Shown here piece by piece: positions 512-53,907 of a stretch of 60,124 bases of DNA (position 1 is its first letter; every line of letters starts with the position of its first letter). The stretch is from an uncultured bacterium. GTDB lineage: Bacteria; Hydrothermota; Hydrothermia; LBFQ01. A model generated the notes under the pieces. It did no database searches and was not told where the DNA came from. It saw only the letters and a program-made list of their open reading frames with translations. The stretch lies in the NCBI GenBank assembly GCA_964473735.1, contig CAYYQD010000003.1, forward strand, positions 1 to 60,124, in the 5' to 3' direction. Position numbers and translations under genes: made by a program.

Positions 512-919
512 TCACTCCGGGTGCGTTGTTCCCTTCACAGTGGGGAAGATGGAGCGGAGGCTCTCCGGAGGGCGTATGGGTCTGAGATTTTTGTCGGTAA
601 AGGCGTGGACGGTTCTACCTTCGGCTATCCTCTCCCCGTCCCTGTAGACCACGTAGCTCACGAAGAGACGGGCCCCCTTTATGTGAGCACTCACCTCTAT
701 ATCAAGTAGGTCTTCAAAGCGGGCGGGTTTGAGGAAACGCACCCGGAGTTCAAGGAGTGGGAGGAGGATACCCTTCCTCTCCAGCTCCCCATAAGGCACC
801 CCCACGTGGCGCATGAACTCCACCCGCGCTTCCTCAAAGTACACGGCGTAGACGCTGTGATGGACTATCCCCATCTGGTCCGTCTCGGCGTACCTAACCC
901 TTACCCTGTGTTTGAACAT
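512..919 (-). CDS. acyl-CoA thioesterase, YbgC/4HBT hot-dog family
   Basis: 135-aa ORF. The N-terminus 'RVRYAETDQMGIVHHSVYAVYFEEAR' matches the YbgC/4-hydroxybenzoyl-CoA thioesterase signature. Its start overlaps the bactofilin gene end. Confidence 0.85.
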   Translation of the reverse strand: MFKHRVRVRYAETDQMGIVHHSVYAVYFEEARVEFMRHVGVPYGELERKGILLPLLELRVRFLKPARFEDLLDIEVSAHIKGARLFVSYVVYRDGERIAEGRTVHAFTDKNLRPIRPPESLRSIFPTVKGTTHPE

Positions 920-1268
920 CGTTGCTCTCCAGTGTTATCTTGCCCTCCACCTTTGCGCCCTCCTCAACTACGAGGACCTTGTACTGCAGGTCCCCGGAGA
1001 ACCTGCTCTCCTTCTTAAACTCCACCCTTCCGGCGGTTAGCCTCTCGGTGCGCACCTCCCCGGAGCATACGAAGGATCCAGCGGTTATGGTATCTGACGT
1101 GACCCTACCGTCCCTCTCAACTATGAGCTCCCCCTTTACCTCAACGTTCCCCTTTATCTCCCCTTCCACTATGGCGCTTCCGTTTACGGTTATCTCGCCG
1201 GTTATGGTCGTGCCCTTCCCGACGAACAGTTCAACGGCAGAGAAGTCCTCCTTCTTCTTTCTAAACAT
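894..1268 (-). CDS. bactofilin-type cytoskeletal protein
   Basis: 124 aa with a repetitive beta-helix pattern ('GTTITGEITVNGSAIVEGEIKGNVEVKGELIV...') typical of bactofilin/CcmA. A purine-rich GGGAAGGGG stretch lies directly upstream of the ATG. Confidence 0.85.
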   Translation of the reverse strand: MFRKKKEDFSAVELFVGKGTTITGEITVNGSAIVEGEIKGNVEVKGELIVERDGRVTSDTITAGSFVCSGEVRTERLTAGRVEFKKESRFSGDLQYKVLVVEEGAKVEGKITLESNDVQTQGKG

Positions 1269-1279
1269 ACCCCTTCCCT

Positions 1280-1744
1280 TTAGAGTAGCCCTTTACCACC
1301 GAAGGCGACCACCAGGCTGCCCGCGAAGGAGGAGAGCTTAGAGAGGAGTACGGTCTGCTCAACGGTTAGCCTGAAGGCGGGAACCGACATGGCGGCGTAC
1401 CCTAAGACTCCCGCAAACAGGGAGGACTCAACTAAGGCGAACAGGGCTCCTAAGATGGGGTCCAATCCACTCACGGAGAAGTTGAGCTTAAACATCGCCG
1501 TCAGGAACTGAATACCCTGATGGAGAACGAGGAAGACTATGAGAAAGGCCACCATCTTTCGGACGGAATCATCCTGAAGGAAGGAAAGCGTGGACGCCAC
1601 GGGGGAGGTGAAGAGGATACCACCCCACAGGGCCACTATCAGGGCTACGAGGGCCCAGAACTGTGTCCCGGCCTTTGATCGGAACCCCTGGTAGGTGCTA
1701 TAGAGTACGAAGATTACCACTACGATATCAATTGCCCATACCAT
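1280..1744 (-). CDS. CvpA-family integral membrane protein
   Basis: Multi-TM protein starting 'MVWAIDIVVVIFVLYSTYQGFRSK', which is CvpA-like. I moved the start from 1777 to ATG 1744 because a TAGAAT -10 lies at 1752..1757, 7 nt upstream. Confidence 0.7.
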   Translation of the reverse strand: MVWAIDIVVVIFVLYSTYQGFRSKAGTQFWALVALIVALWGGILFTSPVASTLSFLQDDSVRKMVAFLIVFLVLHQGIQFLTAMFKLNFSVSGLDPILGALFALVESSLFAGVLGYAAMSVPAFRLTVEQTVLLSKLSSFAGSLVVAFGGKGLL

Positions 1745-1751
1745 AGTGTCT

Positions 1752-1757
1752 ATTCTA
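1752..1757 (-). promoter_or_regulatory. -10 box TAGAAT, 7 nt before ATG 1744 (cvpA-like)
   Basis: The + strand reads attcta. There is no room for an SD. Confidence 0.55.
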
Positions 1758-2074
1758 CCCCCGAAACGGTCGCCCACCGTGGGAGATACCTATCCACCGT
1801 ACTTTATCGTGCAGCAACGGTTTGATACCGTACCGTTGAACGCTATGCCGGTTCAGGACTGCCACTTTGAGCATGCTATCTGCGAAATGGCGTGCAGGAG
1901 AAAGGAGTGGGACAATACACTCCCGGCGAGAGGGGTAAGGTTTGACTGGATCCGGGACCCCTGTACTTTGAGATGTCGTCCCTACAACCCCTATAGCGGA
2001 ACGATAAAACGTTGAGGACTATATTTTACATTGATCCGCTTATGGGACTTAAGCATCTGGGCAACCCCCGGGTG

Positions 2075-2080
2075 TATAAT
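2075..2080 (+). promoter_or_regulatory. -10 box TATAAT, 9 nt before ATG 2090
   Basis: gtgTATAATacttacaccATG. Confidence 0.5.
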
Positions 2081-2089
2081 ACTTACACC

Positions 2090-2620
2090 ATGTTGTGGTT
2101 AATGAACGCGATCGGTGGGGTTATACTCTCTCCGGCACCCCCCAAGAGGGCTGAAGAAGTTAAGGACGTCTGGGTCTCCTCACTTTTGCAGGTGAGGAGA
2201 GTTCCCGACTTTACCCTAACGGCGACGGGCGATCCCCACGGGTACGCCGTACATCTGTCCGGGACCTGGTCCGACCCCCAGGACGTACCCTCGGCCTACA
2301 TGCTGATCGGTACGGGGGACAGGTCCGACGTTCGCTCCGTGACCCTGTACGTCAGGGGTAAGGGCAAGTACAGGGTACAGGTGTTCCTCCAGAAGGGAGA
2401 CAGGCTCCACATGACCCAGAAGGTCGTTGAGGCTACGGATACGTGGGCTCCCATCACCATAAACACGACTAAGACGATAGAGGTGTTAGGTGGTCTGGCT
2501 GACCGTCCCGGCGTCTCCTTTCCCTTCAAGGTCGTCATCCTGCCGTACATGAACAAGGAGACCGGCGAGGCCAATAACGCGTTTGACCTTGACGTATCTC
2601 CGGTATTCGTACAGAGGTAG
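2090..2620 (+). CDS. hypothetical protein, probably exported
   Basis: The ORF track starts at TTG 2012. The in-frame ATG 2090 is preceded by TATAAT (2075..2080) at 9 nt. The N-terminus is 'MLWLMNAIGGVILS'. No recognisable domain. Confidence 0.45.
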   Translation: MLWLMNAIGGVILSPAPPKRAEEVKDVWVSSLLQVRRVPDFTLTATGDPHGYAVHLSGTWSDPQDVPSAYMLIGTGDRSDVRSVTLYVRGKGKYRVQVFLQKGDRLHMTQKVVEATDTWAPITINTTKTIEVLGGLADRPGVSFPFKVVILPYMNKETGEANNAFDLDVSPVFVQR

Positions 2621-2630
2621 GAGGTGAGAC

Positions 2631-4103
2631 ATGCTGTGGTTAGCCATACTTAGCGATGCTCCCTTCAACGCCAACGTGAAGGTGAGCAACTGGGACATAT
2701 CCACGGGGAAGGATCAGACCGAGGTCACCATGGCCAGATCCTCCAACTGGGTGGTGGCCAGCTGGATCAATCAGGACGTATCGGGCTACTACACGGTGAA
2801 TCAGCTCGCCGTAAGCGCCGATAAGGGATACACCTGGACACAGGTCGGGTACTACGCTCCGTCTAACTCCTCCTCGTGCTGGGTGGGGGATCCATCTCTG
2901 GCTGCTGACCCTAACAACCCCGACAAGTTCTACTGGGTGGGTATGGTATGGTGCGACTTCGGAAGCGGTGTGAAAGGGGAGGTATACTTCTGCACCAACA
3001 CCGGAACCCCCGACAACATCTCCAACTGGTCCTGCTCCATCCTGCCGCCCAACGACAGCTGGAACCACTTCAAGGACAAGCCGTGGATTCTCGCCCGGGA
3101 CAACGGGGGGAACACCGAGCTTCTGGTGGTCTTCACCGCCGACGGCTACGGCTCTACCTCTTTGAGCACCTACGAGATGCTAAGCGTTAAGAGTACGGAC
3201 GGTGGGGCCACGTGGCAGTCCCCCGTGAGGGTGGACCCCGGATACGCCAGCACGGTCGCCTTCACCTACTACGATGCGGCGAACGGCCTCGTCCATATGT
3301 CCGACAACTGTCTGTACTGCTATTCCGGATACGACGTGGTTATAGAATACACCAAATCTTCGGACTTCGGAAGTACGTGGAACTACGTCACGGGTGTCTT
3401 AGGTACCATACCCTCCGGAAAGTCGGCCAGCTGTCCGAACTTCAGCAGGCCGGTTAAGATCGCCGGTAGCATAGCCGGTGTGGGGAACAACGTAGCCATG
3501 GCGGCTACGGTGGATGCGAGCGGTAGCGGTGGAGACTCCTGCAGCATCCAGATAGCTTACTCCACGGACGGTGGCACTAACTGGAACGCCGTCGCCGATA
3601 CGACGGCCCAGTACATCCTGCCCTTCGTCACTACCGACGGTGCTAACTCCATATACGTCATGGCGCAGGGTAGGGTGGGATCCTCCGCCCCGTGGACCAC
3701 TGTCATGTTCTACTCCAGCGACTGGGGTAGTACGTGGAGCGCCGTAAGGGTATCCGACCACGACTACACGATGAACGAGAACCCCGCCGGACACGACTAC
3801 AACACCATACTCCACGACGGAGGAGACCTATTCGCCATCTGGGGGGACGACTACTACAACGAGGACGCCGGTGCCATCTACTTCGCCACCACGGCGGTTA
3901 TAACTCGCTACGCCGAGCTCCCCACGCTCAAGGAGAGGAAAGTGGCCGTGTATGATGGGGTCGTCTTCCTGAACGAGAAAGGGGACATATACGACGCTTC
4001 GGGTAGGGCTGTGATGCTCGGTGCCAGGGGGCGCGTATCCCTCTCACCCGGAGTGTATTTCATCCGTACCGGCTCTACCGTTAAAAAGGTGGTAGTACGA
4101 TAA
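2631..4103 (+). CDS. Asp-box (BNR) beta-propeller protein with T9SS-type C-terminal sorting domain
   Basis: Five S-x-D-x-G-x-T-W Asp-boxes (SADKGYTW, STDGGATW, SSDFGSTW, STDGGTNW, SSDWGSTW). C-terminal tail '...SLSPGVYFIRTGSTVKKVVVR'. GGAGGTGA Shine-Dalgarno (SD) sequence 5 nt before the ATG. Confidence 0.8.
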   Translation: MLWLAILSDAPFNANVKVSNWDISTGKDQTEVTMARSSNWVVASWINQDVSGYYTVNQLAVSADKGYTWTQVGYYAPSNSSSCWVGDPSLAADPNNPDKFYWVGMVWCDFGSGVKGEVYFCTNTGTPDNISNWSCSILPPNDSWNHFKDKPWILARDNGGNTELLVVFTADGYGSTSLSTYEMLSVKSTDGGATWQSPVRVDPGYASTVAFTYYDAANGLVHMSDNCLYCYSGYDVVIEYTKSSDFGSTWNYVTGVLGTIPSGKSASCPNFSRPVKIAGSIAGVGNNVAMAATVDASGSGGDSCSIQIAYSTDGGTNWNAVADTTAQYILPFVTTDGANSIYVMAQGRVGSSAPWTTVMFYSSDWGSTWSAVRVSDHDYTMNENPAGHDYNTILHDGGDLFAIWGDDYYNEDAGAIYFATTAVITRYAELPTLKERKVAVYDGVVFLNEKGDIYDASGRAVMLGARGRVSLSPGVYFIRTGSTVKKVVVR

Positions 4104-5493: not shown

Positions 5494-6996
5494 TTAGACC
5501 ATACCCCTCGTTCTGCGTATCACCCACTCCGCCCACGCAAGGAGCACGACCACGACGAAGAGGGGGAGGATTGAGGACAGGCTGAACCTCCTCCCACCCT
5601 TCTCCCGCATACCCATAACGGCGGCCTCCGTACCGCGAAAAACCTCTCCACCCGATACGGACGCCAGACTTTTCAGGAGCGTCGTATCCGTACCCACGTA
5701 GATCCTCTCCGCCGGTACGCTCCTCAGGTTTATTTTAATAGTCTCGGAGGCGACCTTTACCCCCCTGCGGAATATATCCACGGTGAAGACGGTATCCCCC
5801 GCTTTGAGCCTGTGGGTGTAGGTGTAAAACGACGAGATATTGACGGCCTTACCACCGTTTACGGAGACGGCCATGGGGAAGGGAGGATAGACGTTTATGC
5901 GGAGCATCTCCCCGACGGCGTACACGGGTTTATCGGAGAAGACCTCGTAATCTCTGACTACGAACTCCCTCAGGTAATCCAGAAACCTGTCGTAGGATGT
6001 GGGATCGGCCAACCACACCTTCCAGATGTCCGGCGAGAGTACGAACAGAGCGTTTCCCTTAGAGGCGATAAGTGGGAAGTTCCCCACCCTCTCATAGACC
6101 CTGTCCCACTTAACGTCCGGCAGGTATATCTCCCTGATGGGTGGCACGTCTCCTTTAACGTAGAACGTGCCGCGGGCCACTTTGAGACCGCTCCGGGGAC
6201 CCAGAACGTAGAGGGAGGGGGTACGGGTGTGGAAGGTGTCAAACGGCGGGTCCACGAAGACCGTAAAGGGGTACCTGACCTTTACCTTTACAGTGTCGCG
6301 CACGAGCCTCACGGTGGCATCTGTCAGGAACCACCGTAGAAACCTGACGATCGGGGTCGGGGTCCATACCAGTATCCCCACCCCACCGGCTTCTTTGCCG
6401 AATATCCGAAATTGGAGGGTATCGCTGCGGGTAAGTATCCGTGCCCTCTCCTCTCGTCCGGTCACCTTTACCCTGAACCGAGCTCTGTCCGTGGCGTACG
6501 CGATCTGTCTCTTATCGCCGTAAATGAGCGCGACCGTATCGTTAAGGGGGGCAGAGAACTCCACTATCAGGTCGCTCTCTTTACCTACGGGTGCCGGGTT
6601 TCGCATGCGCACGTGCGTTATCTTGGCGGGAACGGAGCCTTTAGGAGGGAGTAAGACGCTGACCTCCCTGTCGTAGGCGGCGGATAGGGGGTCGCCCCCG
6701 GCGTTGTGCATGCCGTCGGAGACCAGTAATATCGGAGGATTCGCACCTTTGAGAGCGCCGTATATGTCCGTTAAGGTGTCCGAACCGAAGTACGAGACCC
6801 TAAAACCCTCCTTACGGAACCTGCGAGATATGGACTCCAGACGCTTTTCTCCGAATACCATACGGGAGCTGTAGGACCTATCTATCAGGACGGTAGGTCT
6901 TCCGGGAAACCTGAAGCTCACGTTAGCGAGGAGCAGGATAGCCAAGAGCACCCAGAGGAACCTTAAAACATGTACGAGATTCCGCAACCTCCCCAT
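5494..6996 (-). CDS. membrane-anchored vWA-like protein (D-x-S-x-S MIDAS-type motif)
   Basis: N- and C-terminal TM segments. 'VLIDRSYSS' is a MIDAS-like motif, followed by 'ILLVSDGMHN'. ATG 6996 overlaps the -10 hexamer, so in-frame TTG 6987 is an alternative start. Confidence 0.55.
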   Translation of the reverse strand: MGRLRNLVHVLRFLWVLLAILLLANVSFRFPGRPTVLIDRSYSSRMVFGEKRLESISRRFRKEGFRVSYFGSDTLTDIYGALKGANPPILLVSDGMHNAGGDPLSAAYDREVSVLLPPKGSVPAKITHVRMRNPAPVGKESDLIVEFSAPLNDTVALIYGDKRQIAYATDRARFRVKVTGREERARILTRSDTLQFRIFGKEAGGVGILVWTPTPIVRFLRWFLTDATVRLVRDTVKVKVRYPFTVFVDPPFDTFHTRTPSLYVLGPRSGLKVARGTFYVKGDVPPIREIYLPDVKWDRVYERVGNFPLIASKGNALFVLSPDIWKVWLADPTSYDRFLDYLREFVVRDYEVFSDKPVYAVGEMLRINVYPPFPMAVSVNGGKAVNISSFYTYTHRLKAGDTVFTVDIFRRGVKVASETIKINLRSVPAERIYVGTDTTLLKSLASVSGGEVFRGTEAAVMGMREKGGRRFSLSSILPLFVVVVLLAWAEWVIRRTRGMV

Positions 6997-9245: not shown

Positions 9246-10330
9246 GCTATGGGAAGGGTTAGGTAGAAGTGCCCATCGTTCGTCGTGGGTCCTATCTTTA
9301 CGGGTGTGCTATCCCCCGAGAAGGAGATCCTCACGGAGGGGGCGTCTATGTACTTCAGCATACGGGTTATGTGGCTACCTATGAGGCGCACCTTTATCTC
9401 ACCCATCGTCTCCGCCTTAAGCCTCTCTACGCCTTCACCCTTCGGGGATACGGTTCGCAGGGTTATCTCTCCGTCCTTAACCTCCACGTCCACCTCGTAC
9501 GTGTCGGGGGCCATGGCTATCATACGGTCTATCTTACGGCGGAGGACGTCCGTCTCCACCACGACCTCTGCTACGAACTCTCTGGGTACTATCCCCTCGT
9601 AATCCACGTAGTCGTCGTCTATTCCCCTGACTACCGTAAGAACGTTGATAGGGTCGTCGTCTATTGAGATGTGGAGCACCCTGTCCTTAACGGCTATTAT
9701 CCCCTTACTCTTGGGGAGGGTCTTCAGTATCCCCTGAACGTAGGCGGGGAGTATGATGTCCATATCACCGGAGAAGTCCTTGCGGGCGTAAAAACCTAAG
9801 ACGGAGCCGTCGGAGGCCACGAAACGGATCTCCCCGTCTCTGGTGTGGAGGTATATCCCCGTGAGGAAGGGACGGGGGTCGTCCTTGGAGGCGCACCAGC
9901 CCACCTTCTCAACCCCGTTGAGTATGTCCTCCATATCCACCATCAACCCCTCCTCAACCCCCACTTCCGGTAGGGCGGGGAACTCCTCATCGTTGTGGAG
10001 GTTTATCCTGTACAGGGCGTCTTCACCTATCTTTACCGTCAGGACGGTATCCTCCCTCTCAAGGACGACGGACCCACCGTCGGCCCCCTTCAGGACGTTC
10101 AGCATCTCCTTCACCGGTACGTAGGCCTTTCCCTCTTCCCCTTCGTATATGGGCATCCTCTGTATAACCCAGTTGTCCATGTCCGTGGCATAGACCGTAA
10201 GTGATTCCCCATCAACGCTGAAGAAAACGCCCGGAGGCAGAAAGGCCCCTTTACCAAGGCGGGATACGAGCTTGCTCGCCCGCGATAGGACCTCCCCCAG
10301 GGTCTCTCTATCCAGTACAGCCTTCAACAT
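9242..10330 (-). CDS. dnaN: DNA polymerase III beta sliding clamp
   Basis: 362 aa with clamp-like length and N-terminus ('...SLTVYATDMDNWV...'), consistent with three-domain organisation. The call is by similarity pattern only. Confidence 0.8.
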   Translation of the reverse strand: MLKAVLDRETLGEVLSRASKLVSRLGKGAFLPPGVFFSVDGESLTVYATDMDNWVIQRMPIYEGEEGKAYVPVKEMLNVLKGADGGSVVLEREDTVLTVKIGEDALYRINLHNDEEFPALPEVGVEEGLMVDMEDILNGVEKVGWCASKDDPRPFLTGIYLHTRDGEIRFVASDGSVLGFYARKDFSGDMDIILPAYVQGILKTLPKSKGIIAVKDRVLHISIDDDPINVLTVVRGIDDDYVDYEGIVPREFVAEVVVETDVLRRKIDRMIAMAPDTYEVDVEVKDGEITLRTVSPKGEGVERLKAETMGEIKVRLIGSHITRMLKYIDAPSVRISFSGDSTPVKIGPTTNDGHFYLTLPIA

Positions 10331-11165
10331 AGGTGGCGATTATACCGGCGAACTTACCGGCGAACTCCTCGGGGTCGTAATGTACGACCCTCATACCGGC
10401 CCCCAGCTCAAAACCGGCGAACCTCCCCATCCGTGGGAGTACCTCAAGGTGCCAGTGGTAGTCGTACCCCCTCGGGGCCTGATGCAGGACCAGGTTGTAG
10501 TCCTTTACACCGAAGGCCTCCTTCAGGGTGCGCACCACGGATGATAGAAGCATGCCGAAGGGAGGGGTGGGGTTGAACTCCCTGCGATGCTCCGTCGGGT
10601 ATATCCATACCTCGTAAGGTAGGGTCTGCACCTCCGGTACGACGACGGCGTACCCACCGCACTCAAGTGCCCCGTACCCGTATCTTCCACACAGGAGGCA
10701 GCCCTCTCCGGATAGGGCCGAAACCTCCTTCAATACCACCTCCGGAACCACGTCCATGGCCACAAGCTGGGTGTGAGGATGCACGATAGATGCCCCCGCT
10801 CCGTGGCCGTAGTTCCTGAAGAGGAGGACGTAGTCCCTGTCCCTGTGGGCCTCTACCCTCCTTTTCCACACCTCCATAAGGAGGTTGAGGTGCTCTTCGT
10901 CCAGAGTGTTGAGGTCGGAGTCGTGATTTGCAGAGTCTATTATCACCTCGTGGGTAGGGAGTATTGGGTACCTGTTGGGTACTACCCTGATCCTCCAGCT
11001 TTCCCCATCCGGTACCCTCTCTATCTCCGGAGGCGTAAGGTGTTCGTTCCCCGGACAGAAGGGACATACGAAACCCTTATCCCTACCCTCGTGGGGGCGC
11101 TCCCTTCTCTTGGGTGCCACGGAGACCCATATCCCCCTCAGGGGATCCCGTCGGAGTTCGGACAC
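10308..11165 (-). CDS. galT: galactose-1-phosphate uridylyltransferase family (HIT class) protein
   Basis: Zn motif 'CPFCPGNE' and the HIT-like active site 'HPHTQ'. GTG start, 5 nt after TAGAAT. Confidence 0.8.
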   Translation of the reverse strand: MSELRRDPLRGIWVSVAPKRRERPHEGRDKGFVCPFCPGNEHLTPPEIERVPDGESWRIRVVPNRYPILPTHEVIIDSANHDSDLNTLDEEHLNLLMEVWKRRVEAHRDRDYVLLFRNYGHGAGASIVHPHTQLVAMDVVPEVVLKEVSALSGEGCLLCGRYGYGALECGGYAVVVPEVQTLPYEVWIYPTEHRREFNPTPPFGMLLSSVVRTLKEAFGVKDYNLVLHQAPRGYDYHWHLEVLPRMGRFAGFELGAGMRVVHYDPEEFAGKFAGIIATYVEGCTG

Positions 11166-11170
11166 GGCGG

Positions 11171-11176
11171 ATTCTA
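11171..11176 (-). promoter_or_regulatory. -10 box TAGAAT, 5 nt before GTG 11165 (galT)
   Basis: The minus strand reads cctTAGAATccgccGTG. Confidence 0.55.
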
Positions 11177-11237
11177 AGGATGTACTGCCATGAACGGTTC
11201 CTAACTCCGGCCCGGTAGCGTGGGGGTCGCTCCCCTT

Positions 11238-11243
11238 TATAAT
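11238..11243 (+). promoter_or_regulatory. -10 box TATAAT, 10 nt before the 5' end of tRNA-Val
   Basis: cctttTATAATatccgctcacGGGCGCG. Confidence 0.55.
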
Positions 11244-11253
11244 ATCCGCTCAC

Positions 11254-11327
11254 GGGCGCGTAGCTCAGCAGGTTAGAGCGCCGGTCTCACATACCGGAGG
11301 TCGGAGGTTCGAGTCCTCCCGCGCCCA
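11254..11327 (+). tRNA. tRNA-Val (anticodon CAC)
   Basis: Manual cloverleaf fold. The 7-bp acceptor stem (GGGCGCG/CGCGCCC), D stem (GCTC/GAGC), anticodon stem (CCGGT/ACCGG), loop CTCACAT and T arm (GGAGG-TTCGAGT-CCTCC) all pair. Discriminator is A; no CCA is encoded. Confidence 0.9.
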
Positions 11328-11328
11328 C

Positions 11329-12306
11329 TTGACCGTCCTCTCAAATCCTTACGTACTCTGGGCGATAAAGACCCTAATCATCTTCGGTGGCGTTATGACG
11401 GCGGCGGCCTACATGGTGTGGGTAGAGAGGCGAGTCGCCGCCTGGATGCAGGACCGCATAGGACCCAACGTGGTAGGTCCCTTCGGTCTTCTCCAGCCTA
11501 TCGCCGACGTCCTTAAGCTGGCCTTTAAAGAGGAGGTGATACCCGAGAGGGTGGACAGGCTACTTCACTTCCTCGCCCCCGGCATACTGTTCTCCGCTCC
11601 CATCATCGCCATGGCCGTCATACCTTACGGCCCCGGCCTCTACATAAGCAACCCGGACTTCGGTTTGCTATGGCTCTTAGCGGCCACGTCCATAGCGGGC
11701 TACGGCGTGATCTTAGGGGGTCTCTCCAGCGGTAGCAAGTACTCCGTCTTAGGTGGTCTCCGTTCTACCTCCCAGATCGTATCCTACGAGATACCGATGG
11801 TACTGGCTGCCCTCGGACCCGCCATAGCGGCCGGCTCCCTCTCCCTGGTGGATATAGTTGAGGCGCAGAGGGCCGTATGGTTCGCCGTCCCGCAGTTCAT
11901 AGGGTTCATGGTCTTCCTTATAACCACCTACGCCGAAACCAACCGTCTCCCCTTTGACCTTCCGGAGGCCGAGTCCGAGCTCGTGGGAGGTTATCACACG
12001 GAGTTCTCATCCCTCCGTTTCGCGTGGTTCTTCGCTGGAGAGTACGCGAACATGGTCATAGCCTCCTCCGCGGTCTCGGTCCTCTTCATGGGTGGGTGGT
12101 ACGGCCCCCTTCCGGGGTGGAACCTATGGCCGGGCGTACATTGGATGCTCCTGAAGGTGGCCTTCTTCCTCTTCCTCTTCGTGTGGATCCGCTGGACCCT
12201 TCCCAGATTCAGGTACGACCAGCTGATGAACTTCTCGTGGAAGGTTCTCATACCCCTTGCCCTTCTCAACCTCTTCGTAGCCACCGCCCTTAAAGTGATT
12301 TGGTAA
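11329..12306 (+). CDS. nuoH: NADH-quinone oxidoreductase subunit H
   Basis: 'WVERRVAAWMQDRIGPNVVGPFGLLQPIADVLKLAFKEE' is the NuoH/Nqo8 signature. TTG 11329 is the only start that keeps TM1. Confidence 0.9.
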   Translation: MTVLSNPYVLWAIKTLIIFGGVMTAAAYMVWVERRVAAWMQDRIGPNVVGPFGLLQPIADVLKLAFKEEVIPERVDRLLHFLAPGILFSAPIIAMAVIPYGPGLYISNPDFGLLWLLAATSIAGYGVILGGLSSGSKYSVLGGLRSTSQIVSYEIPMVLAALGPAIAAGSLSLVDIVEAQRAVWFAVPQFIGFMVFLITTYAETNRLPFDLPEAESELVGGYHTEFSSLRFAWFFAGEYANMVIASSAVSVLFMGGWYGPLPGWNLWPGVHWMLLKVAFFLFLFVWIRWTLPRFRYDQLMNFSWKVLIPLALLNLFVATALKVIW

Positions 12307-12674
12307 GGGGCGTAGGTATAGACGTCGTAGATGTAAGGGACTTTGAGGGGAGGATCAGAAGGACCCCTGCGTTGAAGGACAGGATCTTTACGGAGCGGGA
12401 AGTCTCCCTGTCCTACTCCATAGAGAGTTTGGCGGGGAGGTTCGCCGTCAAGGAGGCCGTGCTTAAAGCTTTAGGTGTGGGCCTCACCGGAGGCGTGAGA
12501 TGGAGGGACGTTGAGGTGGTCGGGGGTAGGGGAGAGCCCCCTAAGGTCGTACTCCACGGAAGGGTTAGGGACTTAGCTAAGGGTACGGAACTGCACGTAT
12601 CGGTGTCGCACGCTGGAGGGTTCGCGGTAGGGATATGTGTGGCAACCTTTACAGGTACATCCGCTCCATCCTAA
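12300..12674 (+). CDS. acpS: holo-[acyl-carrier-protein] synthase
   Basis: 'GVGIDVVDV...', 'SLAGRFAVKEAVLKALG' and 'VSVSHAGGFA' are AcpS motifs. The TTG start overlaps the nuoH stop. Confidence 0.85.
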   Translation: MVRGVGIDVVDVRDFEGRIRRTPALKDRIFTEREVSLSYSIESLAGRFAVKEAVLKALGVGLTGGVRWRDVEVVGGRGEPPKVVLHGRVRDLAKGTELHVSVSHAGGFAVGICVATFTGTSAPS

Positions 12675-13081
12675 CGCCATCACCTTCGGAGGTTAAGGGG
12701 GCATTGCTCTTCGTCGCGCTCGCTCTGGCTGGCATCGGGTACGCCCTCTATAAGGGACGGAGGCCTCCACCTATGAGGTACAGGACCTACAGAGCCGAGA
12801 AGGTGAGAGAGGAACCTCCCGAACCCGACGTTGATACGGGGTACTACCTTTACGAGAGGAGATTGTACGTGCGCCGTAAATCACGACCCCGTCCGGTGAA
12901 TGTAAATCGCGCCGGAATACGGGAGCTGGTTAGTCTCCCCGGGGTAGGACCGGTTCTGGCACGTAGGATAATGGAGTACAGGAAGAAGTACGGTCCGTTT
13001 AAGGGACCGAAGGACCTACTTGAGGTGAGGGGGATAGGCCCCAGGAAGCTCCAGAAGATGCGACCTTACTTACGTTTTTAG
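12635..13081 (+). CDS. comEA: ComEA-family helix-hairpin-helix DNA-binding protein
   Basis: N-terminal TM segment, then 'VNVNRAGIRELVSLPGVGPVLARRIMEYRKKYGPFKGPKDLLEVRGIGPRKL' (tandem HhH). Confidence 0.8.
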   Translation: MCGNLYRYIRSILTPSPSEVKGALLFVALALAGIGYALYKGRRPPPMRYRTYRAEKVREEPPEPDVDTGYYLYERRLYVRRKSRPRPVNVNRAGIRELVSLPGVGPVLARRIMEYRKKYGPFKGPKDLLEVRGIGPRKLQKMRPYLRF

Positions 13082-13261
13082 GTTTAACACCTCGTCTCCT
13101 CAATCTCAAGCACTGCATCTGGCGTTGTAATTTACCCCTGAAAATAGACCTGTTGGGGGAGAGAACATTGCGGAAGGGTCTTGCGATTTTGAGCATTATG
13201 CCGCCACGTACCTTTTGCCCGATAATCCGACCGGAGAAGGGGCCTCTATCTTCAGGTACCA

Positions 13262-13292
13262 CTTTGGGTATAAAATCGGCAGAAGTAGTACC
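13262..13292 (+). repeat. 31-nt element, copy A (CTtTGGGTAtAAAATCGGcAgAAGTAGTACC)
   Basis: Matches 13581..13611 at 27 of 31 positions. It lies in a 595-bp gap with no supported gene. Confidence 0.6.
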
Positions 13293-13580
13293 GGAGACGG
13301 ATAGCACCGTACCTTTGGATGGTGGTGCTGTACTGTCGGACTTCTCTTACAGCTGCGGCAATTCCCTCTTACCGTTAAGCCGGCTATGGAAACGTGGAGC
13401 CGTTGGGGCTAAAAAGTTCCCCGCAGTCCGATAAAAAAGAGCGTACCCACCTTTACCGGCTCCAGCAATGGTGGGCTTCTCTCCTACTCTGAGGTTTTAA
13501 TACCACGACCTCTACGGATCATATTCGCCGGCAACTATCCCTCATTTACGGTAGAAGAAAGCAAAAGGGCGACGGTATCA

Positions 13581-13611
13581 CTCTGGGTACAAAATCGGGA
13601 AAAGTAGTACC
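13581..13611 (+). repeat. 31-nt element, copy B (CTcTGGGTAcAAAATCGGgAaAAGTAGTACC)
   Basis: Second copy, 319 nt downstream of copy A. It contains the self-complementary ends GGGTAC...GTACCC. Confidence 0.6.
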
Positions 13612-13676
13612 CACCTCCTACGTCCTATCCGCTGGACGCGACTTTATGTCGGAATTAGCTTCGGTCTCCGGAGGGG

Positions 13677-15062
13677 CTACTCTACCTTCAGCCTCTTGGG
13701 TTTGAACTTGGTGGTGTCGGCCACTATCAGGAGGACGTACCTGTCCGTGTTCAGGTACTTCCGGGCCGCTCCGTTGACCCTATCAAGGGTCAGATTCCTT
13801 ATCTCCTCAACGTCCTTTATCCAGAACATGTCCGGAAGGCCGTACTCGTACTGGGTGGACAGGAGACCGGCCACCTGACTGTAGGTCTCCGACGTACGGG
13901 CTATGTATCCGTTATAAAAACTCTTTGCCGCCTCCAACTCCTCCTCCGTGAATCCCTTTTCTTTTGCTTCCTTTATGAGGTCAAGGAGGGTGAGGACGGC
14001 ATCTTCGGCGGCCTCCGTTCGGGTCTCAAGGCCGGCTATGAATATGGAAGGTAGTTTCTCCGACTTCCACGGTATGTTGGGGATGACGTAGGAGTAGGCC
14101 GAGTACGCGTAACCCTTCTCCACCCTTATCTTCCGCAGTATCCTGCTGGAGAAACCGGACCCTCCGAGGATGTAGTTGGCCACCCTCAGGGCGTTCCAGT
14201 CGGGCGAGCTCCTCTGTATATCAACGGGCGCGGCCATCCTGACGTAGGCCTGGTTCAGGCCGGCCATGTGGTAGACCTCAACCTTCCTCCTCTTCTTTAT
14301 AGGCGGGATGTCCGGGAGCTCTACCTTTCCCTTTTCCCATCCGGAGAAGTACCTCTCCACCTTCGCTATGGCCTCGTCGGGATTCAGGGAGGATACCACC
14401 ACCACGTAGGAGATGTTGGGCCTCCAGTACTCTTTATGGAACCTGATGAGGTCCTCGCGGGTTATCCTGTCTACGGACTCAACGTACCCTTCCGTGGGAT
14501 GGGCGAGGCGGGTGCCCTCGTAGGTCAGCTCGTAAAGCCGCACGCTCGCCACGTAGTTGGGATTACTCATGTTGTTCTGTATGGAGGCCTTCTGCCTTCT
14601 CTTCTCCCTCTGAAACTCCTTCTCCGGGAAGGTGGGGTTGAGTACGACGTCGGATGCTATGGCCAGCATGCTGTCGGCGTCGTCCGTTAAGGACCTCACG
14701 GTTATCTCCGTGTGGGTTCTGCCGACGTTTACGCTGAAGGACCCTCCGATGTTCTCTATGGCTGAGGCTATCTCCTCGGAGGTTCTGTCCTTTGTACCCT
14801 CATCCACCATTACCCCTACTAAGTTGGCAAGACCCTCCTTACCTTCGGGGTCAAGGAGGGACCCCACCCTCATCGTAAGCTGCATGTGGAATATGGGGAG
14901 CTTGTCCTTCTTTACGGCGATAACGTGCAGGCCGTTGGGTAGGGTCTTCTCCTTCTTTATAAGGGGTTTGACGGTTATCTTTCTCTCCATGCTCTTAACC
15001 GTCCCCGTTGAGGAGCATCCGGCTACAACAAAAACCGTCAGTATGGGAATTAACTTCCTCAT
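13677..15062 (-). CDS. M16-family (pitrilysin-like) lipoprotein, non-catalytic variant
   Basis: Lipobox 'VVAGCSS'. M16 two-domain layout. At the HxxEH position the sequence reads 'GLANLVGVMVDEGT', so the zinc ligands are missing. Confidence 0.8.
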   Translation of the reverse strand: MRKLIPILTVFVVAGCSSTGTVKSMERKITVKPLIKKEKTLPNGLHVIAVKKDKLPIFHMQLTMRVGSLLDPEGKEGLANLVGVMVDEGTKDRTSEEIASAIENIGGSFSVNVGRTHTEITVRSLTDDADSMLAIASDVVLNPTFPEKEFQREKRRQKASIQNNMSNPNYVASVRLYELTYEGTRLAHPTEGYVESVDRITREDLIRFHKEYWRPNISYVVVVSSLNPDEAIAKVERYFSGWEKGKVELPDIPPIKKRRKVEVYHMAGLNQAYVRMAAPVDIQRSSPDWNALRVANYILGGSGFSSRILRKIRVEKGYAYSAYSYVIPNIPWKSEKLPSIFIAGLETRTEAAEDAVLTLLDLIKEAKEKGFTEEELEAAKSFYNGYIARTSETYSQVAGLLSTQYEYGLPDMFWIKDVEEIRNLTLDRVNGAARKYLNTDRYVLLIVADTTKFKPKRLKVE

Positions 15063-15070
15063 GGTAGGGG

Positions 15071-15076
15071 ATTCTA
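15071..15076 (-). promoter_or_regulatory. -10 box TAGAAT, 8 nt before ATG 15062 (M16 lipoprotein)
   Basis: The minus strand reads ccgTAGAATcccctaccATG. Confidence 0.55.
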
Positions 15077-15082
15077 CGGACG

Positions 15083-15622
15083 TTAGTCCCTCTCAAACGG
15101 GAACCCCAACGCCTCCAAGAGGCGGTAAGCCATCTCGTCGTTGTCCGCGCTGGTGACGATGTTGATGTCCATCCCGAAGACCCTCTGCACCTTGTCTATC
15201 TCCACCTCCGGGAAGGCCGTGTGCTCGTCCAAGCCGAAGTTGTAGCTCCCCCTACCGTCAAACCTATCCTTGGGCAACCCTCTGAAATCCCTCACACGGG
15301 GAAGGGCGAAGTTTATGAGCCTCTCAAGGAAGTCGTACGCCCTCTTTCCCCTCAAGGTGACCTTCAGACCTATGGGGGTACCCTTGCGGAGTTTGAACTG
15401 GGCCACGTGCTTTCTCGCTCTCGTTATGACGGGCTTCTGACCGGTTATCATCGCGAGGTCCTTCGCCACCACCTCAAGGGACTTGGGATCCTCAAGGGCC
15501 TCCCTTCCCCATCCCACGTGCACCACCACCTTCTCTATACGCGGCACCTCCATGATGTTCAGATTCAGTTCCTCGGCCAGTTTGGGCCTAATCTCCTTTT
15601 TATACCTCTCGTAAAGGGCCAT
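15083..15622 (-). CDS. rplE: 50S ribosomal protein L5
   Basis: 179 aa. 'YNFGLDEHTAFPEVEIDKVQRVFGMDINIVTSA' and the N-terminal 'RPKLAEELNLNIMEVPRIEKVVV' are classic uL5. Confidence 0.95.
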   Translation of the reverse strand: MALYERYKKEIRPKLAEELNLNIMEVPRIEKVVVHVGWGREALEDPKSLEVVAKDLAMITGQKPVITRARKHVAQFKLRKGTPIGLKVTLRGKRAYDFLERLINFALPRVRDFRGLPKDRFDGRGSYNFGLDEHTAFPEVEIDKVQRVFGMDINIVTSADNDEMAYRLLEALGFPFERD

Positions 15623-18112: not shown

Positions 18113-18142
18113 ACGTTGGAGGTAAAGGCCTCGTTTCTCCAG

Positions 18143-18148
18143 TAGAAT
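18143..18148 (+). promoter_or_regulatory. -10 box TAGAAT, 8 nt before ATG 18157 (tig)
   Basis: cagTAGAATagccgcttATG. Confidence 0.55.
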
Positions 18149-18156
18149 AGCCGCTT

Positions 18157-20169: not shown

Positions 20170-20178
20170 GGGCGGGGG

Positions 20179-20184
20179 TAGAAT
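20179..20184 (+). promoter_or_regulatory. -10 box TAGAAT, 6 nt before TTG 20191
   Basis: gggTAGAATtccggcTTG. Confidence 0.5.
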
Positions 20185-20190
20185 TCCGGC

Positions 20191-28206: not shown

Positions 28207-28632
28207 ATGGCCATCGTACAGAGGAAGAAGATGGAGGAGGAGGCGGAGATCCCGACCGCCTCCATGGCCGACATAGCCTTCCTCCTCATCATATTCTTCA
28301 TGACCACGACCAACTTCGCCCGGGAGAAGGGGCTCAAGTTCTTACTTCCGGAGAAGAAGGATAAACCGCAGGAGCTGAAGATAGCGAGCAAGAACCTGCT
28401 GAAGATTTCCATAAACGACAGGGGGGAGGTCTTCCTTAACGACCAGCAGATAGATCCCAACCGCCTTGAAGAGGAAGTGAAACGACGGTTAGAGGAGAAC
28501 AAGAAGCTCATTATACTCATCCGTACGCACGAAAACGCCCCCTACGGTATGATGATAAAGGCCTTTGATGCCGTTAAGGCCGCCGGGGGTAAGAAGGTGG
28601 GCTTAGGCGTAATAAAGGAGGAGGGATCATGA
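28207..28632 (+). CDS. exbD: ExbD/TolR biopolymer transport protein
   Basis: 'EIPTASMADIAFLLIIFFM' N-terminal TM segment with the conserved Asp. 1-nt gap after exbB. Confidence 0.9.
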   Translation: MAIVQRKKMEEEAEIPTASMADIAFLLIIFFMTTTNFAREKGLKFLLPEKKDKPQELKIASKNLLKISINDRGEVFLNDQQIDPNRLEEEVKRRLEENKKLIILIRTHENAPYGMMIKAFDAVKAAGGKKVGLGVIKEEGS

Positions 28633-29036
28633 GGCTAAAGCGTAAAAAGGAGATGAAGGCCCAGATCCCCACGGCCTCCATGTCCGATATAGCTTTCCTC
28701 CTTATAATATTCTTCATGACCGTGACCGTGTTCCGTAAGGCTCAGGGTCTCCCCGTCCAGCTCCCCTTTGCCAAGACCACGGAGCGTATCCTCAAGCAGC
28801 GCGACTTAGCCTTCGTCTGGATAGGCCGGAACGGTAAGGTAAGCGTAGATGACAACATCGTCCCTCCGGAGAAGATCGCCGTTATCTTCCGGACCAAGAT
28901 GGCCGACAACCCCGCCCTGATAGTGGATATAAAGGCGGATCAGAACGTGCGCTACAGGTACGTGTATAAGGTTATGGAGGCTTTGAGGGAGGCCAACGCC
29001 CTCAGGGTCGTATTTGCCACGAGGAAAGGACAATGA
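28629..29036 (+). CDS. exbD: ExbD/TolR biopolymer transport protein (second paralogue)
   Basis: 'QIPTASMSDIAFLLIIFFM'. 4-nt ATGA-type overlap with the preceding gene. Confidence 0.9.
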   Translation: MRLKRKKEMKAQIPTASMSDIAFLLIIFFMTVTVFRKAQGLPVQLPFAKTTERILKQRDLAFVWIGRNGKVSVDDNIVPPEKIAVIFRTKMADNPALIVDIKADQNVRYRYVYKVMEALREANALRVVFATRKGQ

Positions 29037-29692
29037 GGGAGAAGGATAAGAAGAGCCTCGTAAAGAGGATCTTCCTTGAGAGCGAATTGGAAACGGAATA
29101 CACGAGGGACTTAAACCTCGCCTTTACTCTGTCCCTCATCGTCGTGATCGGCGCCTTTCTCTTCGGTAAAGGATGCAAGATTGAAAATTACAAGCCAAAG
29201 AAGGCGCAAGAGACGGCCCTTGAACAGATAGACATCCAGACGGAGTTTGAGGAGCCTCCTCCTCCACCCCCTAAACCCAAGGTGGCCTTACCGGAGGAGG
29301 TTGAGGAGGTTGAGAGCGAGGCCGAGCAGGACACCATAAACATAGCCGAGACGGTTGAATTCAACGAAGAGGACGTACCCCCTCCTCCCCCTCCATCTCA
29401 GGTCTTTCAGGTGTACGAGGTGGATGAACCTCCGGAGCCGGTCGTGAACGTACAGCCGGAGTACCCCGAGATAGCCCGTCAGGCCGGCCTTGAGGGTAAG
29501 GTGCTGGTTGAAGCCGTTATAGACGAGAACGGGAACGTCATAGACGCCCGTGTAAAGTACTCCGACAACGAGATCTTCAACCAGGCAGCCCTCGCAGCCA
29601 TGAGGAAGATGAAGTTCAAACCGGCCAAGCAGAAGGGTATCCCCGTGAAGGTTAAGATAATACAGCCCTTCATCTTCAAGCTGAGGAGGTGA
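29033..29692 (+). CDS. tonB: TonB energy transducer
   Basis: N-terminal TM segment, Pro/Glu-rich spacer (EEPPPPPPKPK ... PPPPPPS), and a C-terminal TonB domain 'PEYPEIARQAGLEGKVLVEAVIDENGNV...KFKPA'. Confidence 0.85.
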   Translation: MREKDKKSLVKRIFLESELETEYTRDLNLAFTLSLIVVIGAFLFGKGCKIENYKPKKAQETALEQIDIQTEFEEPPPPPPKPKVALPEEVEEVESEAEQDTINIAETVEFNEEDVPPPPPPSQVFQVYEVDEPPEPVVNVQPEYPEIARQAGLEGKVLVEAVIDENGNVIDARVKYSDNEIFNQAALAAMRKMKFKPAKQKGIPVKVKIIQPFIFKLRR

Positions 29693-29758
29693 GGTATGGG
29701 GTTCTTCAGGGTGAGGAAGGGGGAGAGTTATAACAGCACCTTTAAAAAGGAGGTGAAT

Positions 29759-32700: not shown

Positions 32701-32938
32701 CGCTACCCATAACGTAGATTTCCGTATCTACAAGAGCTTCGGCCTACCCTTCGGTGCTAACCTTCGTCTGTTCGCGGACATATACAACCTCCTGAACGAC
32801 CGTACCGTCGTCTCCTACGCCGACCAGAACTACTTCTACTACTTCGGAGACCCCGAGGGGCCGACCAAGGATCCGACGGTGTATAAGAGGGGCAGGCTTA
32901 CGAGGTACGGCCTGCAGATCACGTGGAAGCAGAGGTAA
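29759..32938 (+). CDS. TonB-dependent outer-membrane receptor with N-terminal carboxypeptidase-regulatory-like domain (Oar/SusC size class)
   Basis: AAGGAGGTGA SD 4 nt before ATG 29759. Signal peptide 'MKRFLVGLFALLVALPLFGQ'. CarboxypepD_reg block 'GRVVSAENGEPIPAAIVKIV...GTYTLEARAIGY'. Plug domain 'VVEAKEKV...IQVRGGRPGEVSYVVDGVEV', followed by a long beta-barrel. Confidence 0.9.
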   Translation: MKRFLVGLFALLVALPLFGQYGKIAGRVVSAENGEPIPAAIVKIVSGPAKGGTYADENGYYVLLRLPPGTYTLEARAIGYKPQIVKNVVVDADHTTEINFHLPSKAIKVKAVVVEAKEKVIKKDETESKSVVKGENIQNIPVASLEQAISLSSGVRVSGGVIQVRGGRPGEVSYVVDGVEVTDPYTGYQSVDLPLNAIQEASVSKGGFGAEYGSASSGVVQVATREGTDKYEFSFQTFSSIGMGGFFNTNVGDPYMKYFQPPYFYGGDKYRLGNGKSGSEYWNDLMSFDRERADIYSKNLAEFGKKDPYFTDFATYFIGKDYFKYPWRENYFRPIIGIGGPVLPFYDALRFYLSYDYTTTQGTYQNGMRREGSYQFKLSWFVTPKVKLFFGSVGTDGEYAFGFYPNWRLLLARMPVIESKNRQFAAGVNYAPSPKSYLEFRVGYFNTYRLYLPFIDIDKDGVADFTDRDGDLLVEVDPDMLKLIGRALDPNLVHEDNGNWVELRTFWWETPPQGYYPTFVKSTKRQNYYLGVVKGTNDTVLIAYGDTLYDSSGNPVEVDTVYRIKNCYVPVDGKVEACTTKMVFSNIYTPEPYTWPKRVFYTRNTKTWSTRLDFLSQDPFGLKGHEFKTGFEFYRYDIKQTDVYYASGGNIYIDLVDAQPYKGAYYIRDKMEFEGFIANVGFRFDYYNPNAWVPGDLLNPVKDITLAQIGPIFNRDSSWWYNDRTTRDTFFLRDPKRVSPTFYVSPRIGISHPISENDVLHFTYGHYFQIPRLRWLFANQYWFFTGAFNIMGNPSLKPEKTISYEVGIKHAFTPYTVIDITAFYKDIADLVQSKWIYIGNTGWQYTTFVNQDFGSVRGVEIDFTKTPGGSNPYLRFLTLNLAYTLQFAKASFANQYALYALTWSGIAPEYAEEHYVDWDQRHVVNAVVSYDIPLIRKTLSLQFMTGYGVSLIYTFGTGTPWSPPLRSPRDVLERMNSLRLPATHNVDFRIYKSFGLPFGANLRLFADIYNLLNDRTVVSYADQNYFYYFGDPEGPTKDPTVYKRGRLTRYGLQITWKQR

Positions 32939-32949
32939 GGAGGTAGGAA

Positions 32950-35283: not shown

Positions 35284-35293
35284 GAGGTAGAAA

Positions 35294-36280: not shown

Positions 36281-36292
36281 GGAGGTTTTGAA

Positions 36293-40368: not shown

Positions 40369-40378
40369 AAAAGGAGGT

Positions 40379-42742: not shown

Positions 42743-43231
42743 TCACCTGTTGGGCGGCAGGTTATCCCAGCGGCGCAGGGCGTAGTCCTTTCGCAGCGGG
42801 TGGCCGTTGAACCCCTCCCAGAGCAGTATCCTCTCAAGGTTGGGATGTCCGGCGAACTTTATGCCGAACATGTCGTACACCTCCCGCTCGTGCCAGTTCG
42901 CCCCCTTGTAGATGTGGGAGACGGAGGGTACGGCCTCCCCGTCGTCCACGGCCACCTTGAAGCGTATCCTGTCCCGGTGGTGGGTGGAGTAGAGGTGATA
43001 CACCACCTCAAACCTCTTTTTGTGGGGTAGGGGGGTGGCCCTCCACCCCAGATAGTCCACGGCCGTTATATACACGAAGAGGTCAAAGCCCAAGACGTCC
43101 CGGGCGAACTTGAGGACGTCCCCTATAACCTCCTTGGCCACGTACACGGTCGTGAAGTCCTTACTCTCCACCTCGGGGCCCACCTTGTCCCCGAAGTTGG
43201 CGTGGAGGGTGGGAAAGAGGTTCCTACTCAT
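42743..43231 (-). CDS. nuoC: NADH-quinone oxidoreductase subunit C
   Basis: 'FEVVYHLYS', 'ANWHEREVYDMFGIKFAGHPNLERILL' is the 30-kDa subunit signature. Confidence 0.9.
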   Translation of the reverse strand: MSRNLFPTLHANFGDKVGPEVESKDFTTVYVAKEVIGDVLKFARDVLGFDLFVYITAVDYLGWRATPLPHKKRFEVVYHLYSTHHRDRIRFKVAVDDGEAVPSVSHIYKGANWHEREVYDMFGIKFAGHPNLERILLWEGFNGHPLRKDYALRRWDNLPPNR

Positions 43232-53879: not shown

Positions 53880-53895
53880 CGGACGCAAGCGGGCT

Positions 53896-53901: not shown

Positions 53902-53907
53902 ATAGCA

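Follow-up and report, generated by a model that had tools for sequence, protein, structure and literature searches.

Mitochondrial transfer RNA (tRNA) punctuation, a model reportedly going back to Ojala, Montoya and Attardi in 1981, is the closest described parallel to the locus analyzed here; in human mitochondria, tRNA-Leu(UUR) lies 2 nucleotides (nt) before MT-ND1, a homologue of NuoH. In the thrU-tyrU-glyT-thrT-tufB unit of Escherichia coli, tRNAs and a protein gene stand under one promoter and are split by RNA processing. Plant mitochondrial t-elements and MALAT1/mascRNA have the shape of a tRNA and thereby draw in RNase P or RNase Z, which sets the end of a neighboring RNA. Here, we describe a tRNA-Val gene that stands a single nucleotide before nuoH, the gene for a subunit of respiratory complex I, in a 60,124-nt stretch of DNA from an uncultured bacterium (GenBank contig CAYYQD010000003.1, forward strand; hereafter, the window). 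Excision of this tRNA would bring the nuoH start codon to within 1 nt of the 5′ end of an mRNA. The parallel between MT-ND1 and NuoH is a coincidence, and no evolutionary link is implied.

In Actinobacteria, Deinococcus-Thermus and archaea, primary leaderless mRNAs have neither a 5′ untranslated region (UTR) nor a Shine-Dalgarno (SD) sequence (PMC4633059, PMC3848588, PMC3160421). A leaderless mRNA can also arise by cleavage, as with the MazF endonuclease of E. coli, which reportedly cuts just before the start codon (work cited in PMC3848588 as ref. 96).

The tRNA-Val/nuoH junction

The junction consists of the following elements.

11238..11243, + strand: TATAAT, -10 box of the proposed tRNA-Val/nuoH transcription unit, unchanged in 11/11 aligned sequences
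11244..11253, + strand: 10-nt spacer from the -10 box to the tRNA 5′ end, predicted to hold a pre-tRNA leader of 2-4 nt, which RNase P would remove
11254..11327, + strand: tRNA-Val(CAC), 74 nt, without encoded CCA; G11254 is the acceptor start and A11327 the discriminator
11328..11328, + strand: single spacer base, C11328 (replaced by T in part of the relatives), with which the processed mRNA is predicted to begin
11329..11331, + strand: nuoH start codon TTG, the same in all sequences; its two U's complete the Y-U-U tRNA trailer
11329..12306, + strand: nuoH, coding for 325 amino acids (aa) of complex I subunit H (ND1 family), identified by Pfam, PDB and homologues

ARAGORN called the tRNA gene as Val-CAC at 11254-11328, and Rfam RF00005 matched 11254-11327 with 74.2 bits (E = 2e-14, threshold 29). 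Its acceptor stem forms 7/7 pairs, and the bases 3′ of A11327 read C-TTG-ACC, so that CCA is not encoded. The 1-nt gap to the nuoH coding region falls inside the 0-3 nt range of mitochondrial-type punctuation and holds no SD-bearing spacer of the tufB type. No SD for nuoH was found upstream either, the nearest GGAGG lying 21 nt from TTG and being base-paired in the T stem. Two GGAGG motifs occur within tRNA-Val (11296-11307); we rejected them as an SD for nuoH because of their spacing and base-pairing. Joint folding of tRNA and mRNA did not bring out any particular structure (z = +1.0).

Upstream of the TATAAT box, there is no conserved -35 element. Because the lineage shows no such element, a strict sigma-70 scan of 10000-14000 yielded 0 promoters, and the -10-only pattern surfaced instead from the analysis of gene starts. 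A TTATAATAT box precedes the first tRNA by 9-13 nt in every tRNA unit examined in the lineage. The box-to-tRNA spacer of the relatives, also 9-13 nt, exceeds the 5-9 nt that usually separate TANAAT from the start codon in leaderless window genes, and transcription should thus start a few nt before G11254. At 11314-11323, 5-9 nt before the nuoH TTG, there is no TANAAT-like hexamer; the hexamers there, from TCCTCC through CCCGCG, sit within the invariant T and acceptor stems of tRNA-Val. These results bear out a first-pass annotation made from the letters of the window, which had placed TATAAT at 11238..11243, 10 nt 5′ of the tRNA, ended the tRNA at A11327 without CCA, and seen neither promoter nor SD between tRNA and nuoH.

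Start codon and product of nuoH

TTG 11329 is the first start of the 325-aa open reading frame (ORF), and no in-frame ATG, GTG or TTG occurs inside tRNA-Val or in codons 2-22 of nuoH. The product matches Pfam NADHdh (PF00146) from residue 14 on, over profile positions 2-297/298 (E = 2.8e-119), as well as NuoH/ND1 chains in PDB, including 4he8_H and 7nyh_H, with E values down to 1e-84; 8000 NuoH homologues were retrieved. Alignment with Thermus thermophilus Nqo8 (4he8_H) starts at NuoH residue 6, facing Nqo8 residue 8; residue 10 is the first to align with E. coli NuoH. Counted over codons 2-30, the window clade has 11/6/25 variable sites at codon positions 1/2/3 and the Caldipriscus clade 6/6/23, the motif L-S-N-[PE]-Y-x-x-W-x-x-K is kept from residue 4-5 on, and indels just 3′ of TTG measure 3 nt or 15 nt and are hence in frame. 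The next ATG (M23, 11395) is CTG, CTT or CTA in Caldipriscus, and M29 (ATG 11413) is a conserved residue of transmembrane segment 1 (TM1) with no SD upstream.

Since homology begins at residue 6 and third-position variation at codon 2, indels stay in frame and M23 is not conserved, TTG 11329 is, on comparative grounds, the real nuoH start and the only credible one. The same codon had been named earlier as the only start that keeps NuoH TM1 intact, and the Pfam extent, the Nqo8 alignment and the codon-position bias all agree with it.

Metatranscriptome contigs X8, X9 and X11 carry a 15-nt (five-codon) in-frame deletion right after TTG relative to a metagenome-assembled genome (MAG; L009:3997-4015), which indicates that the first few NuoH residues tolerate a change in length. 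Public NuoH calls conflict at the junction: P0004-P0007 (281-292 aa) are cut to an internal ATG, and the Joint Genome Institute (JGI) call P0003 uses TTG.

Conservation in relatives

A genome-collection scan grouped the window with candidate division WOR-3, among Caldipriscus-related thermophiles; its nearest MAGs, two of which carry the label Thermotogota, were obtained from hydrothermal samples. The junction alignment comprised 11 sequences, the window and L001-L010 from the genome collection, and a metagenome scan added further independent copies (L081, L084, L087, L118, L147 and L191). The synteny of tRNA-Val and nuoH, which the first-pass annotation had proposed as a check, holds: at least 16 independent assemblies, which belong to two WOR-3 clades, show the succession of TATAAT, tRNA, 1 nt and TTG without change, despite differing anticodon and upstream gene. 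The spacer is always 1 nt and always a pyrimidine, at nuoH and at the ahcY junction described below alike. Directly upstream of nuoH, tRNA-Val was found in 10/10 loci with 73-93% NuoH identity, 73% being the lowest identity across the junction-bearing set; more distant WOR-3/Hydrothermia relatives (55-59% identity) have no tRNA upstream of nuoH. Because the arrangement is identical in L001-L010 and in the six metagenomic copies, the abutment of tRNA-Val and nuoH is, by this comparison, far beyond chance.

The surroundings of the junction are less stable. DNA 5′ of TATAAT is unalignable between the clades, and, as upstream neighbor, the window has a divergent galT-like gene, as against a co-directional 811-aa gene ending ~7 nt before TATAAT in Caldipriscus. 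The anticodon of the nuoH-linked tRNA-Val is CAC in the window, L001-L005 and L010, and GAC in L006-L009, L081, L084, L118, L147 and L191; L087 has the sequence of the window. Acceptor and T arms are the same in both clades, and the anticodon stem changes compensatingly. As the arms are identical while the anticodon and its stem differ, the isoacceptor at this fixed nuoH locus has evidently been swapped or converted.

A second junction at ahcY

The metagenome scan also returned nine loci in which TATAAT is followed by 11-12 nt, five tRNA genes, a single T, and then the TTG of ahcY, which encodes a 413-aa S-adenosylhomocysteine hydrolase. The tRNA genes come in the order Ile(GAT), Pro(CGG), Pro(TGG), Pro(GGG) and Val(CAC), with 2-10 nt between genes.

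L100:6342-6760 (- strand), L182:3155-3575, L204:225-645; also L108, L119, L120, L162, L169, L185, L190: tRNA-array/ahcY junction of Caldipriscus-like hot-spring bacteria

The ahcY TTG aligns exactly with the ATG of orthologues from the window clade (L-P/S-R-I-K-D versus M-P-H-V-K-D). These orthologues (L200, L203 and L205), one of which shares its MAG with L005, stand without tRNAs and are predicted to be leaderless because a conserved TAACAT lies 7-8 nt before the ATG. Since the tRNA-linked TTG stands where leaderless orthologues have their ATG, it appears that a tRNA and a leaderless promoter can replace each other in presenting the same start codon. Public AhcY calls conflict here as well: P0122-P0127 range from 387 to 452 aa, some running upstream through the tRNA genes, and the JGI call P0121 uses TTG.

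All tRNA genes examined in the lineage (38/38) have discriminator A and no CCA, and the trailer starts with Y-U-U in nearly all of them and with a near variant otherwise. That TTG never varies is explained by its being the only start codon compatible with a 1-nt spacer as well as with the Y-U-U trailer, which is probably the signal for the 3′ endonuclease. Uracils downstream of the cut are said to activate the RNase Z of Bacillus subtilis (Pellegrini et al. 2012, Structure 20:1769, as cited in PMC11649783 and PMC8943300), which we take as a lead only.

Stand-alone tRNA-Val(GAC) genes (L115:601-675 on the - strand and L132:3077-3151, from the same sample series as L087) have their own TATAAT 11-12 nt upstream. 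On their 3′ side, the discriminator A is followed by CTTG, GGCCGAAAGGCCC and TTTTTTT, with a terminator hairpin beginning right after the CTTG trailer. The YTTG trailer thus exists without a coding sequence behind it.

In an unrelated low-GC (34%) hot-spring lineage, tRNAs nearly touch ATG starts (L134:909-981 on the - strand and 5730-5817 on the + strand; L138:4972-5044; L193; L198:6471-6543). Gaps there are ~6-7 nt from tRNA-Val(GAC) to gyrA, ~1-2 nt from tRNA-Ser(CGA) to a 506-aa ORF, and 4 nt from tRNA-Val(CAC) to a 139-aa ORF. Abutment of tRNAs and start codons may be wider among thermophiles.

Predicted leaderless genes in the window

In 27/55 long window ORFs, an in-frame start is preceded at a distance of 5-11 nt, most often 8 nt, by a TA[N]AAT box; the whole window holds only 54 TANAAT hexamers on both strands. 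The starts behind these boxes are 19 ATG, 5 GTG and 3 TTG, with examples at 10331-10344 (-), 15070-15080 (-), 18140-18156 (+), 20177-20190 (+) and 53890-53907 (+), and operon-internal genes (e.g., 28207-42031) have GGAGG 5-10 nt upstream in place of the box. Domain boundaries fit several of these starts: the GTG of an FMN reductase is Pfam profile position 1, the Pfam domain of an alanine dehydrogenase begins 4 residues past the box-associated ATG, and the Pfam boundary of a membrane protein agrees with its leaderless TTG start. About half of the organism's mRNAs are therefore predicted to be leaderless, with leaders of ~0-2 nt and ATG, GTG or TTG starts. Longest-ORF starts are wrong in several cases in which TANAAT boxes mark other starts, such as ATG 2090 instead of TTG 2012 and, for alanine dehydrogenase, ATG 5431 (-) instead of GTG 5536.

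A box-to-start gap of 5-9 nt makes leaders of ~0-2 nt normal in this organism, and a C-UUG RNA would accordingly resemble what its ribosomes routinely meet. Because the genome is dominated by leaderless genes, the tRNA/nuoH junction looks like a natural extension of the normal expression of the lineage, not an isolated oddity. The arrangement had been regarded beforehand as unusual for a bacterial respiratory gene; it is real, but it fits a leaderless-dominated genome and recurs at ahcY.

RNA contigs from relatives

The RNA evidence consists of assembled hot-spring metatranscriptome contigs of Caldipriscus relatives, which carry no strand or end information. On L009, four of them run unbroken from upstream through the tRNA into nuoH.

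X8: L009 3867-4140, depth 566 (upstream gene 73; nuoH 770-3300)
X9: L009 3751-4140, depth 321
X11: L009 3899-4135, depth 179
X12: L009 3600-4137, depth 29

At the ahcY locus, a 1474-nt X8 contig (depth 123) spans tRNA-Pro to tRNA-Val and continues into ahcY, and X9 and X13 contigs are similar. The contigs attest to molecules in Caldipriscus relatives in which tRNA and mRNA are joined; DNA carry-over is disfavored by the strong difference in depth between neighboring segments and retains a residual probability. The cotranscription postulated earlier agrees with RNA-derived contigs of a close relative that cross the tRNA into nuoH, although these contigs are strandless and come from Caldipriscus only. 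Mapping of the raw-read hot-spring runs X36-X38 on L008 gave essentially 0 matches.

Two signals in these data were set aside. The X11 contig starts at L009:3899 with an Illumina adapter joined 3 nt before TATAAT and 5 nt after the stop of the 811-aa gene, in an orientation weakly consistent with + strand RNA. We dropped it as a transcript 5′ end, given that adapter-joined starts also occur at arbitrary ahcY sites (L182:3793 and 4151); it is probably a mere fragment end, the alternative being read-through from the 811-aa upstream gene. A dip in X13 depth at the tRNA/nuoH junction was not used, as it coincides with the 15-nt strain indel, which breaks contigs.

Proposed mechanism and alternatives

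We propose that tRNA-Val and nuoH-acpS-comEA would form a single transcription unit driven by TATAAT 11238. RNase P would trim a short leader of a few nt off the 5′ side of the pre-tRNA, and an RNase Z-type endonuclease would cut directly 3′ of the discriminator A11327, as expected for a gene without encoded CCA; CCA would then be added to the freed tRNA. The downstream product, 5′-P-C-UUG-ACC..., would be an mRNA with a 1-nt leader whose nuoH is translated by the leaderless route, with acpS following by translational coupling. Leaderless translation of the processed RNA is to be expected since about half of the organism's mRNAs are leaderless. The cut site, the enzyme, the 5′-monophosphate end and the translation of the processed RNA are the parts of this scheme that we infer. 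Taken together, we consider a single transcript, a precise cut and leaderless-type translation of nuoH to be the probable course of events, with ample room for doubt. A broader proposition is more tentative, and we hold it to be possible rather than probable: that tRNA excision is a regular, selected route to translatable mRNAs in WOR-3 (Caldipriscota/Pyropristinus), amounting to tRNA punctuation in bacteria, with genes that are leaderless in one clade standing right behind tRNAs in another, UUG doubling as trailer signal, and efficient initiation at UUG behind a 5′-monophosphate 1-nt leader, a type of mRNA with which model bacteria cope poorly.

Several points weigh against this scheme. The main biological caveat is the weakness of UUG initiation: on leaderless mRNAs of mycobacteria and E. 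coli, UUG initiates poorly (PMC4633059), in Propionibacterium acnes it accounts for a mere 3% of the leaderless starts (PMC3848588), and the three leaderless TTG starts in the window are themselves predictions. Regarding the enzymes, no RNase Z or CCA-adding enzyme gene was found in the 60-kb window (Pfam on most ORFs), a tblastn search of the retrieved relative loci only, with a B. subtilis Rnz probe, gave 0 matches to rnz, and the supplement of a paper on the WOR-3 strain sy37 has no relevant entry for either enzyme (PMC12285271). As to RNA, 0 runs are listed for the window's own organism, so that all RNA evidence comes from relatives; the contigs, devoid of strand and end information and possibly affected by DNA carry-over, include no processed 5′ end at TTG; and the high depth of those spanning the junction could mean that much precursor stays uncut.

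The last point leads to an alternative in which the cotranscript is made and nuoH is translated from the uncut precursor, or the attached tRNA protects the mRNA, so that tRNA maturation and mRNA use compete. Junction contigs with depths near those of the gene body (X8, 566; ahcY locus, 141 versus 123) speak for it, as do the two GGAGG motifs at 11296-11307 within the tRNA. These motifs, however, lie at least 21 nt from TTG and are paired in the T stem, whereas real SDs in the window stand 5-10 nt from the start, and a GC-rich tRNA in its folded state, just 1 nt away from the start codon, would obstruct the mRNA channel of the ribosome. The exact 1-nt gap and the Y-U-U trailer, as in ordinary tRNA-tRNA spacers, favor a precise cut, and we regard translation of the precursor as unlikely without being far-fetched. 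A different cut is envisaged if an endonuclease acts within nuoH and exonucleases trim back, each transcript then giving rise to tRNA or mRNA but not both. This would sit well with the missing RNase Z match in the tblastn probe of the retrieved loci, and exonucleolytic maturation of tRNA 3′ ends is found in many bacteria. Nevertheless, CCA-less tRNAs only 2-10 nt apart in the five-tRNA array need precise endonucleolytic separation, and the strict 1-nt spacer at two unrelated genes is left unexplained; such either-or maturation strikes us as very improbable.

Processing is dispensed with altogether if nuoH has its own transcription start in or at the end of the tRNA gene, yielding a primary leaderless mRNA, with the abutment reflecting genome compaction. 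Primary leaderless transcripts are the norm in this genome, and junction k-mers in X13 have a depth of 3-5 versus 44-540 in nuoH. Yet no TANAAT-like hexamer ends 5-9 nt before TTG, although all other leaderless candidates have one, the tRNA sequence is constrained and invariant, T is disfavored as a start site, and the X13 dip falls on the contig-breaking strain indel. We consider an internal start quite unlikely, if slightly less so than either-or maturation. Finally, the true nuoH start could be a downstream ATG (11395 or 11413), the 66-84 nt after the tRNA then being a 5′ UTR. Gene callers gave products of 281-292 aa in some relatives, the 292-aa forms being among P0004-P0007. Codon-position bias and the SN[PE]Y..W.K conservation nonetheless begin right after TTG, homology to solved NuoH structures starts at residue 6, M23 is missing in Caldipriscus, and M29 lies inside TM1 with no SD before it, which leaves a downstream start with a minimal probability.

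Neighboring genes

The tRNA-Val/nuoH unit and its divergent neighbor comprise three further features.

12300..12674, + strand: acpS (holo-ACP synthase; Pfam ACPS), whose TTG start overlaps the nuoH stop (ATTTGGTAA)
12635..13081, + strand: comEA-like helix-hairpin-helix protein gene (Pfam HHH_3), the last gene of the unit
11171..11176, - strand: TAGAAT, -10 box 5 nt before the GTG start (11165) of the galT-like gene, which is divergent and of the leaderless kind

The overlap of the acpS start with the nuoH stop suggests translational coupling, and the order nuoH-acpS-comEA is the same in the Caldipriscus locus L081. The galT-like gene (Pfam DUF4931_N/GalP_UDP_transf) has its TAGAAT box in the same 88-nt intergenic region, which would therefore hold two back-to-back promoters. 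A GC-rich hairpin flagged as terminator-like, GGGGGTCGCTCCCC at 11222-11235 (+), lies directly before TTTATAAT; CCCCTT ahead of TATAAT is kept in the window clade only. The hairpin may insulate the two divergent promoters from each other, or it may act as a promoter element.

Complex I genes are dispersed in the window. Downstream of nuoH stand acpS and comEA, not nuoI/J, and nuoC (Complex1_30kDa), at 42743-43231 (-), lies alone between esterase and methyltransferase genes, 30 kb from nuoH. The rplE gene (ribosomal protein L5), at 15083-15622 (-), stands by itself outside any ribosomal-protein cluster, flanked by genes for an FG-GAP repeat protein and a peptidase M16. A separate TAGAAT box precedes its ATG by 8 nt.

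Comparison with known systems

Our literature search, within its own bounds, returned no description of bacterial leaderless genes abutted by tRNAs. tRNA punctuation counts as a hallmark of mitochondrial expression, and studies of bacterial leaderless translation are known only for primary A/GUG transcripts. If the proposed mechanism is true, tRNA punctuation and leaderless translation can combine in a free-living, deep-branching bacterium, which would provide a natural test of whether processed 5′-monophosphate UUG mRNAs are translatable. It would also account for systematic misannotation, such as the 292-aa NuoH and AhcY of up to 452 aa through the tRNAs. A WOR-3 isolate, strain sy37, is available (PMC12285271), and published metatranscriptomes from Yellowstone place Caldipriscus among the populations with the highest transcriptional activity (PMC11696919). 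Both resources make the tRNA/nuoH question directly testable.

Compared with the tufB type, in which a spacer of ~100 nt carries an SD and CCA is encoded, the nuoH junction has a 1-nt spacer, no SD and no CCA, and the cut itself would make the translation start. Primary leaderless mRNAs owe their triphosphate purine end (A/GUG) to transcription initiation, whereas the monophosphate Y-UUG end of nuoH would be made by processing; in keeping with this difference, nuoH lacks the -10 box 5-9 nt upstream that characterizes primary leaderless genes and is present at 27/55 other window ORFs. The MazF route is stress-induced and toxin-dependent and leaves a 5′-OH, while that of nuoH would be constitutive, built into the gene layout and tied to tRNA maturation. 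Unlike t-elements and mascRNA, which are mostly non-functional tRNA mimics, the junction involves a genuine and probably essential tRNA-Val gene.

Mitochondrial punctuation remains the nearest likeness. As in mitochondria, a tRNA flanks the coding region, and its excision by RNase P and RNase Z would set the mRNA end; the resulting messengers would share a leader of 0-3 nt, the lack of an SD and the possibility of a non-AUG start, and ahcY adds a multi-tRNA array before the gene. Unlike mitochondria, the organism is a bacterium that lives freely and has a ~2-Mb genome with ordinary promoters and operons, in which only some genes are so arranged and putative bacterial enzymes would do the cutting.

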